From a bacterium (GTDB lineage Bacteria; Electryoneota; Electryoneia; Electryoneales; Electryoneaceae), in the NCBI GenBank assembly GCA_963675295.2, contig CAXXKJ010000002.1, positions 960,001 through 1,024,000 on the forward strand: a stretch of 64,000 nt of DNA, read 5' to 3'. Under the pieces are notes generated by a model, which saw only the letters and a list, made by a program, of their open reading frames with translations, searched no databases and was not told the origin of the DNA. Both the position numbers and the translations under genes were made by a program. This document shows positions 22,369-29,925 of this stretch, piece by piece; positions within the stretch are counted from its first letter, which is position 1, and the number at the start of each line of letters is the position of its first letter.

Positions 22369-22812
22369 TTACTGCTCCAGCGCACCCTGTTCGATCCATG
22401 TGCGGATGGCTTCGATTTCACTGCTGGCGAGTTGTCCACCCTGCGGCATGCGCTGGAGGCCATTGGTTCCTTCGACACGCCACACCAATTCGCTGGCGTC
22501 CGGATCGCCGGGTACGACATACGGATTGCCGGACAGGCTGTTGGCATCGATCCAACCGGCGAAATCGGTCAGGTCGAGGTTGCCCAGCTGGATTGACGAA
22601 CTGTGACACGAGATGCAGTAGGTGCTGATGATGTCCGGGTAAATGTCCCCGGTCCAGCTCAGCGTGTCTGCAGGAGTCGGGTCGCCGTTGCCATTGTTGT
22701 TGTCGTTCGGGCTGACCGGGTCGCCCATGTCGGAGCAGCCTGCGGCCAGCAGCAGGGTCAACAAAAGTATCGGAAGCAGCCGTGCGAACACGGCGTTGGT
22801 CTGCAAAATCAT
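22369..22812 (-). CDS. Monoheme cytochrome c lipoprotein (planctomycete cytochrome c-like)
   Basis: ATG 22812 after GAGGAG; lipobox AAGC; CISCH; VVPGDPDASEL...RMPQGG with distal Met; IRTWIEQGA. Confidence 0.88.
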   Translation of the reverse strand: MILQTNAVFARLLPILLLTLLLAAGCSDMGDPVSPNDNNNGNGDPTPADTLSWTGDIYPDIISTYCISCHSSSIQLGNLDLTDFAGWIDANSLSGNPYVVPGDPDASELVWRVEGTNGLQRMPQGGQLASSEIEAIRTWIEQGALEQ

Positions 22813-22826
22813 CGTGCTGGGTCTCC

Positions 22827-23420
22827 TCACTGCGGCATCGCGGTGAATGTGGCGGACACTTCCTGGTCCTCCGCCAGTTTGACGATCAGGAACTGTGGAC
22901 GTTCGATGTCGTAATCGTTGAGGTTGACGATCCACTCTGCGGTAACTGTCAGGCTGCCGTCGGCATTGCGGGTGACCTCGAGCATCGGTTCGATGTCGTT
23001 GGTCTCGCCGTGGCAGGTGAACTGCCCGTTCGCCTTCATCGTCGCCGTTTCGCCGGTCTTCAGCATGGCCGGATTGCCGGACAGGCCGGTCAGCTCGAAC
23101 GTCATCTGCGGGAACTTGTCCGGGTGCAGATGGTTGTCGAGCATGTGATTGTTACGCAGCTTGATGCCGGTGTCAAGCGTCTTGACATCAATCGAAACCG
23201 TGCCGGATACCGGCTTGCTGAGATCGTCCGGATCGCAGCTGAACGTTCCTTCGAGGTGGTTCGTGCGTCCATCGAAGGTTTCACCGACCGCACGGGAAAC
23301 AAACACGACTTCATTGGGTTCGCCGGGGGATACGATGTACGTCATTACCTCGGCAATGGAGGGCTGAGCCGCCAGCAGGCCGATCATCATCACAAGCGTC
23401 AACGTCTGAAGCGTCTTCAT
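22827..23420 (-). CDS. YceI family protein (lipid/polyisoprenoid-binding beta-barrel)
   Basis: Signal peptide; SIDVKTLDTGIKLRNNHM...LHPDKFPQMTF; GQFTCHGET. Confidence 0.9.
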   Translation of the reverse strand: MKTLQTLTLVMMIGLLAAQPSIAEVMTYIVSPGEPNEVVFVSRAVGETFDGRTNHLEGTFSCDPDDLSKPVSGTVSIDVKTLDTGIKLRNNHMLDNHLHPDKFPQMTFELTGLSGNPAMLKTGETATMKANGQFTCHGETNDIEPMLEVTRNADGSLTVTAEWIVNLNDYDIERPQFLIVKLAEDQEVSATFTAMPQ

Positions 23421-23435
23421 GGGGGGCTCCTCGGT

Positions 23436-24536
23436 TTATAGCCACAAGTGCAGTTGCAGCAGGAATTGTCCGGACTCGTCCGAGCCGGGATAGTTCAGTT
23501 CGGAATGCGCCCACTGGTACATCGGGGAAATGCTGATGTAACCGCGCGGGATAATGTCCATCCCAAGCCGTGTGCGCCAGATGTAGCCGGACTCCGTGTC
23601 CATGTCCGGGTCGTAGTATTCGTACCAGCCGTGCGCATAAATGCCACGTTTGATCATGTAGCGCAGTTGATGCGTCGCGACCATGCCCTGAATGTCCTCG
23701 ACTTCCTCACGCAGATTCGTTTCGCCGAGGAAGGTCAGCGGGCCGACATTGAAGCCGTAGAATGCGCCGTAATGGCGGGCGCTGTAGCCACCACCGCCGA
23801 GGTCATCGGAACGGCCGGAGAGGCCGAGTGTGGCGGTCAGGGCGTTGTGTCCGAACCGTCGGGCAATTCGGGCCGAGACGGCGTTGCCATTGCTGCCGGG
23901 GACGCCGTTTGTCAGGCCGGCGGTGACATCCCAACGATCAGTGTAGAGGCCGGCTTCGACGCCGGTGTCGTAGGCTCGCCAGCCCGCGCCACGGTCACTG
24001 CCGTAGTCGAGGTACTTACGGGCGAAGACGGTATGATCGACCCAGCCCCAGCCGTAGGTGGTGCGGAACTTACCGGCCCGGACACGGATCTTCCCGTTCT
24101 TCATCGAGAAATTGGCGAACGCTTCCTCGATGCCGTTGTTGGATACGTCGACAACCGCCGAGGTGGCGTCGGTCAACGTGTACGCGAAATAGATGTCACT
24201 CTGCATCATGACGAATTCGTTACCACGGGTCTGCATGTTCTCGTCGTCATCATAGCCGTGCCCGAGAGCGTACAGGCCGCGCAGGTCGAAGCCGTACTGC
24301 AGGGCGTCGTCTGCTTGCGGCAGGATTTCCTGGATCTCGGCGAAATCTTTCGCTTCCATCGCGAGATCGCTGTACGAGAAGAACTGGGCGCCGTACAGGG
24401 TCCGCATTCCGCCACCGGTGGGGTTGTGGTGGCACAGGGCGCAAGTCTGATTGTATTTCACCTGGTACTCGGGCAACGCATGTGCAAATGACGCAAACAG
24501 CAGGATGGCCAGCAGTGCCGGCACAACGCGTTTCAT
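23436..24536 (-). CDS. Putative outer-membrane beta-barrel with N-terminal CxxCH (cytochrome-porin fusion)
   Basis: Signal AHA|LPEY, CALCH about 12 residues into the mature chain, then amphipathic strands (RVRAGKF..YG) and a C-terminal FLLQLHLWL beta-signal-like end. Confidence 0.78.
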   Translation of the reverse strand: MKRVVPALLAILLFASFAHALPEYQVKYNQTCALCHHNPTGGGMRTLYGAQFFSYSDLAMEAKDFAEIQEILPQADDALQYGFDLRGLYALGHGYDDDENMQTRGNEFVMMQSDIYFAYTLTDATSAVVDVSNNGIEEAFANFSMKNGKIRVRAGKFRTTYGWGWVDHTVFARKYLDYGSDRGAGWRAYDTGVEAGLYTDRWDVTAGLTNGVPGSNGNAVSARIARRFGHNALTATLGLSGRSDDLGGGGYSARHYGAFYGFNVGPLTFLGETNLREEVEDIQGMVATHQLRYMIKRGIYAHGWYEYYDPDMDTESGYIWRTRLGMDIIPRGYISISPMYQWAHSELNYPGSDESGQFLLQLHLWL

Positions 24537-26067: not shown

Positions 26068-27312
26068 ATGAGTGGTGACAAGCACATAGCCTACCTTGAC
26101 AACGGCGACAGCACGCAGGTGTTGCCGGAGGTTGTCGATGCGATGCTGCCGTACCTGACTGAATCGTACGGCAACCCCGCCAGTCTGCACATGCTCGGCC
26201 TGGCGGCGGAGGAAGCGCTGGACGAGTCCCGCGCGACCATTGCGGAGTTGATCAACGCACGGCCGGCGGAGATCGTGTTCACCGCCAGCGCGACCGAAGC
26301 AAACAACATCGCGCTGGAGGGGTTGCGGCGGCAGCACCCGGACAGGAAGCACGTGTTGATCAGCCCGATCGAGCATGCCAGCGTGCGCAATGTCGTCAAG
26401 CGGATGGAGAAGCAGGGTCTCGTCGAACTGGACGAGCTCGAGGTGGACGACAACGGCATCGTCAGCGCGGACAGCCTGCGGGAGAAGTTGCGTGACGATA
26501 CGTTGTTCGTCTCGATCATCCACGGCAACAACGAGATCGGCACGGTTCAGGATCTGTCCGCGTTGGCGGAGTTGATTCATGAAAAGGGCGCGTTCCTGCA
26601 CGCCGACTGCGCGCAGACGCTCGGCAAGATGCCTGTCGATGTGCGCGCGCTCGGGGTCGACCTCGCCAGCTTCAACGCTCACAAGCTGCACGGTCCGAAG
26701 GGTGTCGGCGCGTTGTTTGTGCGCAAACGGCTGAAGCTGCGGCGGTTGCTCGAGGGTGGACCGCAGGAACAGAACCTGCGTCCCGGGACGGAGAATGTTC
26801 CCGCGATTGTCGGCTTCGCGAAGGCGGTGGAAATTGCGGTGCGTGACATGGACAACGTCATTCCGCAAATCCATGAGCTGACGAAACAGTTGGCGGAGCG
26901 ATTGCTGGAGATACCGCACGTACGGCTTAATGGCCCCGAGGTTGGATCGGACCAGCGTCTACCGGGTAACTTGAACGTCACCTTCAAGTACATTGAGGGC
27001 GAGGCGATTCTGATGAGCCTGAATTATGGCGGCGTGTATGTCAGCAGCGGCAGCGCGTGCTCGTCCCGCAGCCTGGTGCCGTCGCATGTGCTCACCGCCA
27101 TCGGGCTGTTGCACGAGGAAGCGCATGGCTCGATTCGCTACACGTTGTCGCGTCTCAACACGCAGGTGGATGTCGATCTCGCGGTGGAGCAAACGAAGAT
27201 CGCGGTGGAGCGCTTACGTGCGATGACGGCGTTCATTCCGGAAGAGCACAGCGAACGCGAATCGGATCACGCGAAGACGTTCTACAAGCAGAAAAAAGAG
27301 AAGCTGGATTAA
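26068..27312 (+). CDS. iscS: Cysteine desulfurase (IscS/NifS group I)
   Basis: AYLDN, YGNPAS, FTASATEANN, PLP lysine in AHKLHGPKG, catalytic SSGSACS. Confidence 0.93.
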   Translation: MSGDKHIAYLDNGDSTQVLPEVVDAMLPYLTESYGNPASLHMLGLAAEEALDESRATIAELINARPAEIVFTASATEANNIALEGLRRQHPDRKHVLISPIEHASVRNVVKRMEKQGLVELDELEVDDNGIVSADSLREKLRDDTLFVSIIHGNNEIGTVQDLSALAELIHEKGAFLHADCAQTLGKMPVDVRALGVDLASFNAHKLHGPKGVGALFVRKRLKLRRLLEGGPQEQNLRPGTENVPAIVGFAKAVEIAVRDMDNVIPQIHELTKQLAERLLEIPHVRLNGPEVGSDQRLPGNLNVTFKYIEGEAILMSLNYGGVYVSSGSACSSRSLVPSHVLTAIGLLHEEAHGSIRYTLSRLNTQVDVDLAVEQTKIAVERLRAMTAFIPEEHSERESDHAKTFYKQKKEKLD

Positions 27313-27378: not shown

Positions 27379-27478
27379 AGAAGTGCCCGTGTTTGCTTGC
27401 AAACGCGGATCATCCGCGCCTGTCTGCACAGCCGTCACATGTGTCGGAACAGACGGATTTAACCCCACGGGGGGAGCT

Positions 27479-28690
27479 ATGAAGCGCCGTTGGATCAGTG
27501 TCAGTGCGATGGGACTCGTGCTGGTTGTTACCACGTTACTCACCGCCGGTTGCAACGGCGGATCGTCCTCGGATCAGGCCACAAACGGTGGAGAGGGTCT
27601 GCTCGGCGACGCGTCGATGACGTTTATCGGCGACACCACCTACAACGAGTTTCCGTCGCAATCCATCGCGCTGAATGGCAACGTCGCCGTTCTGCTCCGG
27701 GAACGTCCGGCGAACCGCAATTCGGCCAAGCCTTCGGTGCTGTATCTTCAGATGCGCGATCCGCAGAGCGAACTGCTGTGGTCCTTGCCGTTGCTGGATC
27801 CCCGTGAGAATGTGACGGACATGAAGGAAATTGACGGTCGCGGGTTGATGCTGGTCGCGAAGTTGGGTGAGAATGTGCTGGAGAGCGCGCTGATCCGTGA
27901 ATTCAGCGCCGAGGACGGATCAACGGTCAGCGAGATGGATACGCACTGGGATCCGCACTACAGCCCTTGGTCGCTGAATCCGCTGGCGAATGGCAACCTG
28001 CTGGTGCTTGGTGGCCGGATGGTTGAGGCCGGGCAGCCGTTCGAAGCATGGGGCGTGATTCTCGATGCAGACGGCAACAAGGTCGGCGAATGGGACAAGC
28101 CGGTGACCCATCTGTTCCCGACCGGCAACGGGTTCCTCGGTGTGCAACGTGTGCCGGGCGGCCGTTACCCGGACAACACCTTCTACGGCCTATCGGACAA
28201 CGGCGAGTTGATGTGGACGATCGAACGGGCGGACACGCTGATCGGTGGCGTGGTGATGGGCGCGATGACCACCACGGACGGCGACATCCTTGTTGTCGGC
28301 GACGATCGCAACACCCGTCAGCCGGTGTATGTGCGTCTCGGCACGGAAGACGGTGAGGTTCGCTGGATCAAGCGGAACCCGGAAACGCTTGGCTACACCT
28401 GCTACAACCCGATGCGGCTGGATGAGAACCGGATCTTCATTCCGTGCAGCAAGATGCAGATCGACGAAGCGAATCAGCAGCCGCCGTGGAGCTCGGTTGG
28501 TGGTCTGATTATCGACGAGAACGCCCAGATGCTGGACTCTGATCTGCTGATGGATTTCTGGATGATTCCGACCATGCCGGCGCTTGAACTCGGTCCGGGG
28601 CAGGCGTTAATGATCGGTATTGCCAATGTCGATCCGGTGACCTTCCCGCGGATCACGGACGCCGGTTGGCTGTTGGCGGAGGTGAAATAA
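27479..28690 (+). CDS. Lipoprotein, probable beta-propeller
   Basis: Lipobox TAGC; repeated GxxxW motifs (GELMW, GEVRW). Confidence 0.85.
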   Translation: MKRRWISVSAMGLVLVVTTLLTAGCNGGSSSDQATNGGEGLLGDASMTFIGDTTYNEFPSQSIALNGNVAVLLRERPANRNSAKPSVLYLQMRDPQSELLWSLPLLDPRENVTDMKEIDGRGLMLVAKLGENVLESALIREFSAEDGSTVSEMDTHWDPHYSPWSLNPLANGNLLVLGGRMVEAGQPFEAWGVILDADGNKVGEWDKPVTHLFPTGNGFLGVQRVPGGRYPDNTFYGLSDNGELMWTIERADTLIGGVVMGAMTTTDGDILVVGDDRNTRQPVYVRLGTEDGEVRWIKRNPETLGYTCYNPMRLDENRIFIPCSKMQIDEANQQPPWSSVGGLIIDENAQMLDSDLLMDFWMIPTMPALELGPGQALMIGIANVDPVTFPRITDAGWLLAEVK

Positions 28691-28716: not shown

Positions 28717-29925
28717 ATGAAACGCGTTCAATGGATGGTGCCAGTTGTGGCGGCGCTGTTCGTGATCATGGTGTCCTGTGCAAAGACACCGTGGCAGATG
28801 GTGCCGGAATACGATATCAACAAAAGTGATCTGCTGGATGGGGCGACGCCCCTGTTTATCGGGGAACCGTCCACGCGTGATCTGCCGGTGGCGGTGAAGC
28901 CGTCTGGTGACAATGTACTGATGGTCATGCGCAGCAGAAGTTACGAGAATGAAGATGTTTCAGCGGACTACGATCACCGTGTCCAACTGCGCGCCATGGA
29001 CGGCACATTGATGTGGTCGTACCCGGTTGAATCGGGCTGGTTGTGCCGGGACATCCTTGTTGCATCGGCTGAGCAAGTCTGGGTGCTGATCGGACGGTGG
29101 GAAGGTGAAGTCCTGCAGAACACGGCCGTTGTTCAACTCGATGCGTCAAACGGCAACCCTGTGAACCGGTTTGCCGTCCCCGGTTGGAACCTGCAGTACG
29201 ACTTGACGCAATTGTTCGCGCTGCCAGAAGATCACGTGCTGGTGTATGGCCGCCGGACGGTGGAGGCGGACAGTACATTCGAAGCCTTTGGTGTCGTTGT
29301 CGATTCCGCGGGTCAATACGTGGAAGAGTGGACGTGTGGAACATCCATGTTGCTGCCGTTGGAAGATGGATTTCTCGGCGCTACCGCCAGGATCGAGCGG
29401 TTCGATTATCCCGATCTGATGAAGGTCGATGCAAGCGGCAACACGATCTGGACCATCGAACGAGCGGATACGGTGTTCGGCGGGCAACTGAATGGTGTCA
29501 CTCCGGCGGGTGATGGCGACTTGATCGTCAGCTTCTGGGATTGGATGCAATACCGGGGAGTCGTCGCGCGGATTGGCGGTGCGGACGGCGCGGTCCGGTG
29601 GGTGAAGCCATTCGAGACTGGCTTTTTCACGCACATGTACAACCCGTTGCCGTGGAAAGACGGCCAGTTTCTTGTGCTGGGTCAGAAATCCTATTCCAGC
29701 GAGAGCGTGAGAGTGCCGTTCTGGGAATCGGTTTGTGTGGCAGTTTTCGATGGTGACGGCAACGACATCGAGGACGATGGCCGAATCGATTTCTGGGCGA
29801 TGCCGGTACGCGGAGGATTCGAGATCGGTGAGAATCAGTTGCTGTTCGCGGGGATCGGCGGTGCAGATGTCAACGAGATGGCCGAGCAGTGGGATGTTGC
29901 CTGGGTGGTTCTCGACAAGCCGTAG
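28717..29925 (+). CDS. Lipoprotein, paralog of 27479-28690
   Basis: Lipobox MVSC; shares FEAxGV, WTIERADT, GxVRWxK, YNP and DFW motifs with the upstream gene. Confidence 0.85.
   Translation: MKRVQWMVPVVAALFVIMVSCAKTPWQMVPEYDINKSDLLDGATPLFIGEPSTRDLPVAVKPSGDNVLMVMRSRSYENEDVSADYDHRVQLRAMDGTLMWSYPVESGWLCRDILVASAEQVWVLIGRWEGEVLQNTAVVQLDASNGNPVNRFAVPGWNLQYDLTQLFALPEDHVLVYGRRTVEADSTFEAFGVVVDSAGQYVEEWTCGTSMLLPLEDGFLGATARIERFDYPDLMKVDASGNTIWTIERADTVFGGQLNGVTPAGDGDLIVSFWDWMQYRGVVARIGGADGAVRWVKPFETGFFTHMYNPLPWKDGQFLVLGQKSYSSESVRVPFWESVCVAVFDGDGNDIEDDGRIDFWAMPVRGGFEIGENQLLFAGIGGADVNEMAEQWDVAWVVLDKP

Follow-up and report, generated by a model that had tools for sequence, protein, structure and literature searches.

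Cyc2 is the main marker gene from which iron oxidation is inferred in genomes and metagenomes, and its identification relies largely on a short motif in the N-terminal part. According to the definition in Keffer et al. (2021, PMC8406198), a Cyc2 protein comprises a signal peptide, a single CXXCH heme site preceded by AXPXFAR[Q/K][T/Y] and followed by PXL, and a 16-strand porin, for which OprO/OprP are named as modelling templates there and in a 2026 review (PMC13741234); the Cyc2 length filter of FeGenie is given as at least 365 amino acids (aa) (PMC8406198). Here, an operon of three minus-strand genes (G1, G2 and G3) is described that lies at positions 22369-24536 of a 64,000-nucleotide (nt) stretch of bacterial DNA (CAXXKJ010000002.1, 960,001-1,024,000). 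This whole stretch is referred to as the window, and all positions in it are counted from its first letter. The first gene very probably encodes a Cyc2-like heme-porin whose partner, encoded by G3, is a monoheme cytochrome of the type found in the Fe(II) oxidase FoxE, with a YceI-family protein (G2) encoded between them. That the pair oxidises Fe(II) is proposed more tentatively.

The genes are separated by 15 nt (G1-G2) and 14 nt (G2-G3), and a purine-rich ribosome-binding stretch is located ahead of each of them (GAGGGAGGGAG before the ATG of G1 and GAGGAG before the start of G2). The G1 protein starts with MKRVVPALLAILLFASFAHA, a signal peptide, which is followed by a mature chain of 346 residues beginning with LPEYQVKYNQTCALCHHNPTGGGMRTLYGAQF and ending in QLHLWL; signal peptide and lipobox assignments were read from the sequence by eye. 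The motif CALCH at residues 32-36 is the sole CxxCH of the protein and lies 11 residues into the predicted mature chain. In this respect G1 resembles Acidithiobacillus ferrooxidans Cyc2, Mariprofundus Cyc2PV-1 and Leptospirillum Cyt572, which have a signal peptide and one CXXCH about 15 residues into the mature chain. No family match for G1 could be found in Pfam or NCBIfam, and the model for phosphate-selective porins O and P (PF07396) was not matched either.

The fold was predicted with AlphaFold2 from an alignment with 18 relatives (mean predicted local distance difference test score, pLDDT, 82.1; predicted template-modelling score, pTM, 0.79). In the chain, a heme segment of 55 residues precedes the barrel, for which DSSP assigned 16 strands in the model; strands 5 and 6 are connected by a long loop that contains a helix and includes the conserved inward-loop candidate YGWxxxDHTxFxR (residues 161-173). 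A Foldseek search of the PDB with this model returned OprP (2o4v) first (E 2.6e-12, query-normalised TM-score 0.61), with OprO (4rjx/4rjw) close behind and other 16-strand porins thereafter. Compared with PDB sequences, the profile of G1 gave marginal N-terminal matches only. A preliminary description of this DNA had already named the tight spacing of the genes and the signal peptide, heme motif and barrel-like body of G1, and had suggested that the strands be counted by AlphaFold and Foldseek. Its impression of a short barrel had to be given up, since 16 strands and the matches to OprP and OprO indicate a 16-strand porin with brief loops. The phosphate porins OprP and OprO of Pseudomonas aeruginosa are the closest fold to G1, yet the identity is 13-14%, a heme segment like that of G1 is absent from them, and the conserved charges of the G1 barrel are mostly acidic, in contrast to the arginine ladder of OprP that is named in the title of PDB entry 2o4v. 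Judged from the model, G1 thus resembles these porins in fold only.

Relatives of G1 were collected in several ways. A full HMMER scan of 1.84 billion representatives revealed 583 related clusters (formed at 50% identity) at E ≤0.001, of which 208 were found at ≤1e-10, and a profile search of a 90%-identity collection identified 350 G1-family proteins among 8000 candidates. Nearly all are annotated as 'hypothetical protein'. Organism labels are few and name Calditrichaeota, Pseudomonadota and Steroidobacteraceae, and the nearest clusters in the ESM Atlas belong to Ignavibacteriota, Bacteroidota and Pseudomonadota. Among 60 diverse members, none had a family-level match in Pfam or NCBIfam; weak matches to porin models were found in two or three of the 60 at most (BBP2, OMP_b-brl and Porin_O_P, two members each, the last, PF07396, with a best E of 0.002).

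The heme site is retained throughout the family: CxxCH is present in 155 of 167 relatives, and the remaining 12 are 143-339 aa long with matches that start at or near their first residue, which is why we read them as N-terminally truncated. The signature of the 155 members is A(-12)xP(-10)R[YF]Ax[RQ][YT]Gxx-CxxCH-xNP[TS]GGGxRxx[YF]G, where the alanine 12 residues ahead of the first heme cysteine is found in 125 members. In 140 full-length members, which had been chosen for carrying CxxCH, G41, R45, G82 and G155 are invariant and P22 is conserved in 139. The signature could also be used at the DNA level: the back-translated pattern C..CH.[ND]P.GGG.R matched at least 120 metagenome stretches, and in 78 of the 80 for which the DNA was retrieved an open reading frame (ORF) matches the hidden Markov model (HMM) of the family. 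In five metagenome loci (L049, L056, L061, L065, L123), CH.NP.GGG.R opens proteins of 425-835 aa, the bodies of which score poorly against this HMM (32-52 bits). Here, the heme segment may be fused to barrels of another kind.

Compared with the published definition of Cyc2, G1 has the signal peptide, the single CXXCH near the N-terminus, the predicted 16-strand porin and, with 366 aa, a length just above the FeGenie limit; most Cyc2 proteins have 400 aa or more (PMC8406198). Upstream of the heme site, G1 reads ALPEYQVKY instead of AXPXFAR[Q/K][T/Y], that is, A, P, K and Y are kept, F is replaced by Y, and A-R is lost. Downstream, PXL is replaced by HNPTGGGMR, as had been noticed before, and this segment (x-N-P-[TS]-G-G-G-x-R) is the invariant part of the G1 family, whereas Cyc2 has the FAR[QK] core and PxL. 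An upstream A-x-P-x-aromatic-A...[TY]-G pattern, a barrel best modelled on OprO/OprP, a neighbouring gene for a periplasmic cytochrome c or cupredoxin and the lack of a clear sixth heme ligand are common to both groups. The partner genes differ, with a PSCyt1/FoxE-type lipoprotein for G1 and the c4-type Cyc1 for Cyc2, and a YceI gene is present beside G1. In the porin-multiheme complexes MtrCAB and PioAB/MtoAB, a barrel is likewise combined with c-type heme and periplasmic carrier genes lie alongside; however, their 26-strand barrels are described as sheathing a separate decaheme protein (PMC8406198), whereas in G1 one heme would be fused to a 16-strand barrel.

A link between the G1 family and Cyc2 is provided by a second family of cytochrome-porins that carries PxL and was reached via a weak tblastn match (E 0.2) of a G1-family member against plasmids. 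The example found is encoded on a plasmid of Polymorphobacter, where a gene for a c-type cytochrome comes next; it has 444 aa, is annotated as 'hypothetical protein' and reads AVPSFAAQTGQPCQSCHVGGFGPQLT. This PxL-type family comprises 1503 proteins among the candidates scored, with the consensus AVP[AS]FA.QTG..C..CHVGGFGPQLT..GR.FK. Alanine, proline, an aromatic residue, alanine, threonine or tyrosine, and glycine stand at the same distances from the first heme cysteine in both families, and hhalign aligned their profiles with a probability of 96.7% (E 3.4e-10) over 108 N-terminal columns. We read the heme-porin N-termini of the two families as remotely related by common ancestry and, on the sequence evidence, the G1 family as a sister group of Cyc2, not as a member of Cyc2 as published. 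The idea of a divergent Cyc2-like family thus holds for the architecture and the register of the upstream motif, while the strict Cyc2 motifs are absent.

The sixth ligand of the heme was sought in the heme segment and in the barrel. Met44 of GGGMR was considered as the distal ligand and rejected, as this position is occupied by M in 84, L in 31, Q in 10, P in 7 and A in 6 of the 155 members; loci with Ala, Ser, Pro or Gln at this position retain both the YceI and the cytochrome genes. Candidates in the barrel are H363, four residues from the C-terminus (129 of the 140 full-length members, R in five), M111 (121) and H168 in the strand 5-6 loop (119), each of which could supply the ligand. AlphaFold3 models of Cyc2, Cyt572 and Cyc2PV-1 are reported to show the CXXCH histidine as the only axial ligand (PMC13741234), so that an open or barrel-supplied sixth position is a likeness to Cyc2 and not a difference. 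Most of the charged residues that are conserved in the barrel across the 140 members are acidic (D84, E138, D167, E194, E272, D309, D311), which would suit a cation.

In G3, the lipobox LLAAG-C26 is followed by the heme motif C66-I-S-C-H70 and by M122-P123, in agreement with the lipoprotein with CISCH and a distal methionine that had been described. It matches the Pfam model PSCyt1 (PF07635) with 44.2 bits (cut-off 22). In its family of 17 sequences, C66, C69, H70, M122, P123, W139, I140, G143 and A144 are invariant, and the lipobox is retained by most. The single sequence gave no match in the PDB at E 0.01, whereas the family profile matched FoxE (5mab, E 8.4e-21) over both heme domains, followed by the C-terminal cytochrome domain of hydrazine synthase alpha. 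FoxE is the diheme Fe(II) oxidase of Rhodobacter ferrooxidans SW2, and both of its heme domains align with the G3 family in the pattern CxxCH...PGDP.xS...MP...WI.xGA; in contrast to FoxE, G3 is a single-domain lipoprotein. No foxY or foxZ was seen among the genes scanned on the flanks of the operon. Six G3-type partners of G1 homologs carry CX3CH or CX4CH instead of CxxCH (L067:5128-5574, L072:3717-4175, L086:4498-4911, L104:1-468, L105:2452-2931, L113:1780-2289).

G2, which had been recognised as YceI before, matches the corresponding Pfam model (PF04264) with 72.9 bits (cut-off 23.7). While the single sequence gave no match in the PDB, its profile matched 14 distinct solved sequences, essentially all of the YceI type, with E. 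coli YceI (1y0g, 8.1e-15) as the best and further matches to polyisoprenoid-binding proteins (including TT1927b, 1wub) and to the X158 entries 2x32/2x34. H92, M93 and H97 are invariant and H137 is nearly invariant in the YceI subfamily linked to G1. Compared with the general YceI consensus, H97 looks specific to this subfamily; together, the four residues could bind a metal or heme or serve in docking. The X158 domains of Cbp2D/E are described as YceI-like and as binding ubiquinone-8, and Cbp2D combines X158 with two c-type cytochrome domains in one polypeptide (Branch et al., PMC8981238). This is a precedent for a YceI domain beside cytochrome c domains in an extracytoplasmic redox protein, although G2 stands alone beside the heme-porin, whereas Cbp2D joins the domains.

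A G1 homolog could be found in 28 of the 41 genomes searched from the window's phylum. At the 27 phylum loci outside the window's genome, the genes directly downstream on the same strand are YceI and then a G3-type cytochrome in 12 cases, YceI only in two, the cytochrome only in five and neither in eight, which adds up to 17 loci with a G3-type gene and 14 with YceI. Two of the 12 loci with both partners have two YceI genes each, and at two phylum loci PSCyt1 domains occur two or three times in the G3 homolog. Of the eight loci lacking both partners, six belong to one family (f6); in two of these, a cupredoxin gene (PF00127) follows the G1 homolog instead of the cytochrome gene (L027:4372-4989, L029:2079-2666), and the G1 homologs with this neighbour are 438-453 aa long. 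A diaminopimelate epimerase gene is located beside all six f6 loci.

For the metagenomes, partners were counted at 46 loci with a full G1 homolog (at least 200 bits). A G3-type gene is adjacent on the same strand at 28 of them, mostly directly upstream with a 4-bp overlap, and at a 29th locus (L078) the two genes are 614 bp apart, with the G3-type gene downstream; a G3-type hit at L076 was discounted, as it overlaps the G1 frame. The adjacent G3-type partners are often 270-330 aa long with an immunoglobulin (Ig)-like C-terminal domain. At many of the other loci, hardly any flanking DNA is available. YceI is present at five of the 46 loci. CHRD-domain proteins, mostly with a Big_7 Ig domain, are encoded no more than one or two genes away from the cytochrome and heme-porin pair in L072, L074, L105 and L116. 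In one sub-branch (L053:1880-2221, L067:3620-3967, L086:6024-6383), the gene directly behind the G1 homolog encodes a small diheme protein of 113-119 aa with a partial match to the reaction-centre cytochrome model PF02276.

A quick maximum-likelihood tree of 58 G1 homologs was calculated with IQ-TREE, from which metagenome loci with partial G1 were left out, as were L029 and L036, whose ORFs appear to have broken C-termini. The tree splits in two branches (Shimodaira-Hasegawa-like approximate likelihood ratio test, SH-aLRT, 96). One consists of 27 metagenome rows with the cytochrome gene upstream; the other contains 31 rows, namely the window, its phylum and five metagenome rows, and includes all YceI-linked loci (20 of the 31). 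Within the phylum, the tree follows taxonomic families. Because YceI is confined to the window's branch, the conserved core consists of the heme-porin and the FoxE-type cytochrome, to which YceI was added as an accessory in one branch. The grouping of three genes proposed in the preliminary description thus stands for the cytochrome, which is conserved as a partner across the family, and for YceI in one branch; the same gene order does recur elsewhere, as had been asked there.

Searches of the whole 4.8-Mb genome revealed one gene of the G1 type, two for YceI proteins and one for a PSCyt1 protein, and the only PSCyt1 gene and one of the two YceI genes are those behind G1, so that their adjacency is far from chance. 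For the attachment of heme, which had been proposed as a further check in terms of Ccm/Ccs maturation genes, the genome encodes two ResB/CcsA (System II) sets. It also encodes two heme-copper oxidases of the COX1 family.

Taking these results together, the favoured reading of the operon is that of a Cyc2-sister outer-membrane oxidoreductase with Fe(II) as the likeliest substrate and electrons passing to G3. As a whole, it is given a little less than an even chance. Heme attachment, localisation, substrate, direction of flow, the contact between G1 and G3 and the ligand of YceI are what we infer in the following scheme. G1 would form a 16-strand outer-membrane barrel with one c-type heme at its mature N-terminus. 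Fe(II) would enter the pore, guided by conserved acidic residues, both in the barrel and in the loop that joins strands 5 and 6, and the heme would take up its electron and pass it to G3, a FoxE-type monoheme lipoprotein presumably tethered on the periplasmic side, from which the electron could move onward to the respiratory chain or an oxidase. G2 would be a lineage-specific accessory that probably holds an isoprenoid quinone or another lipid near the G1-G3 pair. A single heme cannot bridge a membrane, and therefore the substrate of G1 would have to be small, soluble and able to enter the pore. The path from Fe(II) is favoured because Fe(II) is oxidised by the studied members of the two families to which G1 and G3, respectively, are related, and because the cupredoxin partner recalls rusticyanin, which is encoded in the rus operon (PMC10654088). 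A predicted complex of G1 and G3 with two hemes scored 0.00 in both of two runs, which were made without controls.

Several results weigh against this reading. The strict Cyc2 motif P.FAR[QK][TY] and PxL after the heme site are each found in none of the 155 G1-family members, and strict FAR is found in none of 120 members of the PxL-type family, so that the bridge from the G1 family to proven Cyc2 is indirect; moreover, the hhalign match spans the signal peptide, the heme segment and the first strands only. No conserved sixth ligand was found in the heme segment of the family, and a five-coordinate heme would also be compatible with ligand binding or catalysis. Proteins unrelated to iron, e.g., hydrazine synthase alpha, contain PSCyt1 domains as well. 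Neither partner gene stands beside G1 at eight of the 27 phylum loci, YceI is found in none of the 27 rows of the metagenome branch, and the locus counts overstate independent support, because related genomes are kin. Finally, cytochrome P460 genes beside two G1 homologs point to nitrogen-oxide chemistry.

Electron flow in the opposite direction, from the quinone pool or a YceI-held quinol via G3 and the G1 heme to a soluble acceptor in the pore (chelated Fe(III), a humic-type quinone or a flavin), is given a small chance. The direction is not fixed by sequence, but known outer-membrane reductases use multiheme wires, and YceI is missing from a large branch of the G1 family. In addition, the characterised relatives Cyc2 and FoxE are described as oxidising Fe(II) (PMC8406198, PMC13741234, PMC10654088), against which stand the binding of isoprenoid quinones by relatives of YceI (PMC8981238 and the PDB matches of the G2 profile) and the description, in a 2022 survey, of metagenome-assembled genomes of these phyla with Cyc2-like genes as putative heterotrophs (PMC9769843). 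It is improbable that the operon encodes a detoxifying or ligand-handling module, in which a five-coordinate heme at the pore mouth would act on NO, NH2OH, H2O2 or superoxide while G3 supplies or removes electrons. The P460 genes in L039 and L078 and the missing sixth ligand next to the heme motif would suit such a role, but P460 is adjacent in only two of the loci scanned, H363, M111 or H168 could provide the ligand from the barrel, and the missing ligand does not separate the readings, as the AlphaFold3 models of proven Cyc2 are alike in this (PMC13741234). A relay of three parts, of a kind so far undescribed, in which a heme-plugged pore oxidises or reduces some small solute, a tethered FoxE-type cytochrome takes over the electron and a soluble YceI protein ferries isoprenoid quinone or quinol through the periplasm, would couple the outer membrane to the quinone pool without a multiheme wire; H92, M93, H97 and H137 of YceI would then form a redox or docking site. 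It is regarded as rather doubtful, at odds well below those of the favoured reading.

The conserved partner of G1 is an electron carrier, and no regulator is located beside the operon in the window, which makes it very unlikely that G1 is a redox or iron sensor of the envelope whose heme state is relayed to regulators. Genes for a response regulator (L017, L022, L024), an extracytoplasmic function (ECF) sigma factor with its anti-sigma factor (L069, L080) and a histidine kinase (L093) do lie near G1 homologs, but they are not conserved across the family, and the three response-regulator loci represent one lineage (f2). Least credible is an ordinary diffusion porin with an incidental CxxCH and without heme. 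The weak matches to BBP2, OMP_b-brl and Porin_O_P would fit it; however, conservation extends well beyond CxxCH, as G41, R45 and P22 illustrate, nearly all pattern-retrieved metagenome stretches carry an ORF of the family, and linkage to c-type cytochrome genes is seen across it.

Fused cytochrome-porins and Cyc2-like genes in these phyla were already known: the 2022 survey reports FeGenie 'Cyc2' homologs, mostly of cluster III, in Calditrichota, KSB1, Bacteroidota and other phyla (PMC9769843), and these may be the same proteins as the G1 family. The suggestion of a possibly undescribed module can therefore be kept for the signature, the pairing with a FoxE-type cytochrome and the YceI link, which we did not find in print. 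The literature search returned no report of the signature and size of the family, of its constant pairing with such a cytochrome or of a link between YceI and Cyc2, and, judged by the papers listed on YceI and extracellular electron transfer, none of such an operon. The G1 family comprises at least several hundred clusters, occurs in metagenomes from soil, sediment and the sea as well as in the majority of the genomes of a heterotrophic phylum, and combines the build of Cyc2 with a heme-side motif that is very rigid and differs from that of Cyc2, and with a conserved FoxE-related partner of its own. Should it oxidise Fe(II), surveys based on the strict motif miss some iron oxidisers, and iron is handled at the cell surface of many organotrophs; should it do something else, surveys that accept any match to a Cyc2 HMM count too many. 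In either case, the protein is a compact and expressible test case for a single heme in a pore, and the link to YceI offers a lead to the role of YceI proteins.

Table 1. Features of the operon in the window (AF2, AlphaFold2).
Feature	Positions	Strand	Evidence
G1, predicted monoheme cytochrome-porin fusion, 366 aa	23436..24536	-	ORF, start, AF2 model, Foldseek
G1 signal peptide, residues 1-20	24477..24536	-	predicted cleavage after AHA, sequence read by eye
G1 family signature, residues 21-45, LPEYQVKYNQT-CALCH-HNPTGGGMR	24402..24476	-	motif table, 140-member conservation
G1 heme-binding motif CALCH (predicted heme site)	24429-24443	-	
G1 predicted 16-strand beta-barrel, residues 79-365	23442..24302	-	DSSP of AF2 model
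G2, putative periplasmic YceI-family protein, 197 aa	22827..23420	-	Pfam PF04264, E 4.8e-20
G3, putative PSCyt1/FoxE-type lipoprotein monoheme c-type cytochrome, 147 aa	22369..22812	-	Pfam PF07635, 3e-11
G3 lipobox Cys26	22735-22737	-	
G3 heme motif CISCH	22603-22617	-	
G3 Met122-Pro123	22444-22449	-	

A scan of the operon for promoters and terminators gave nothing above the level of shuffled sequence. On its flanks lie genes for two DUF3857 proteins, for uncharacterised lipoproteins and for a NifS/IscS-type class-V aminotransferase. The aminotransferase gene (window 26131-27312) is located close to G1 on the opposite strand and is transcribed divergently, with a gene of 245 aa and no known identity in between, and the same divergent arrangement is found in a 67%-identical relative (L002:4421-5662). 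An Fe-S assembly gene (PF01521) is present near the G1 homolog of L024. The cytochrome P460-domain genes beside G1 homologs are located at L039:1711-2742 and L078:4176-5111; one of the two is divergent, and the other lies directly upstream on the same strand and contains two CxxCH motifs. Furthermore, two tandem paralogous genes for putative lipoproteins without a Pfam match were identified in the window (27476-28690 and 28717-29925), and a similar gene is located near the operon in L002.

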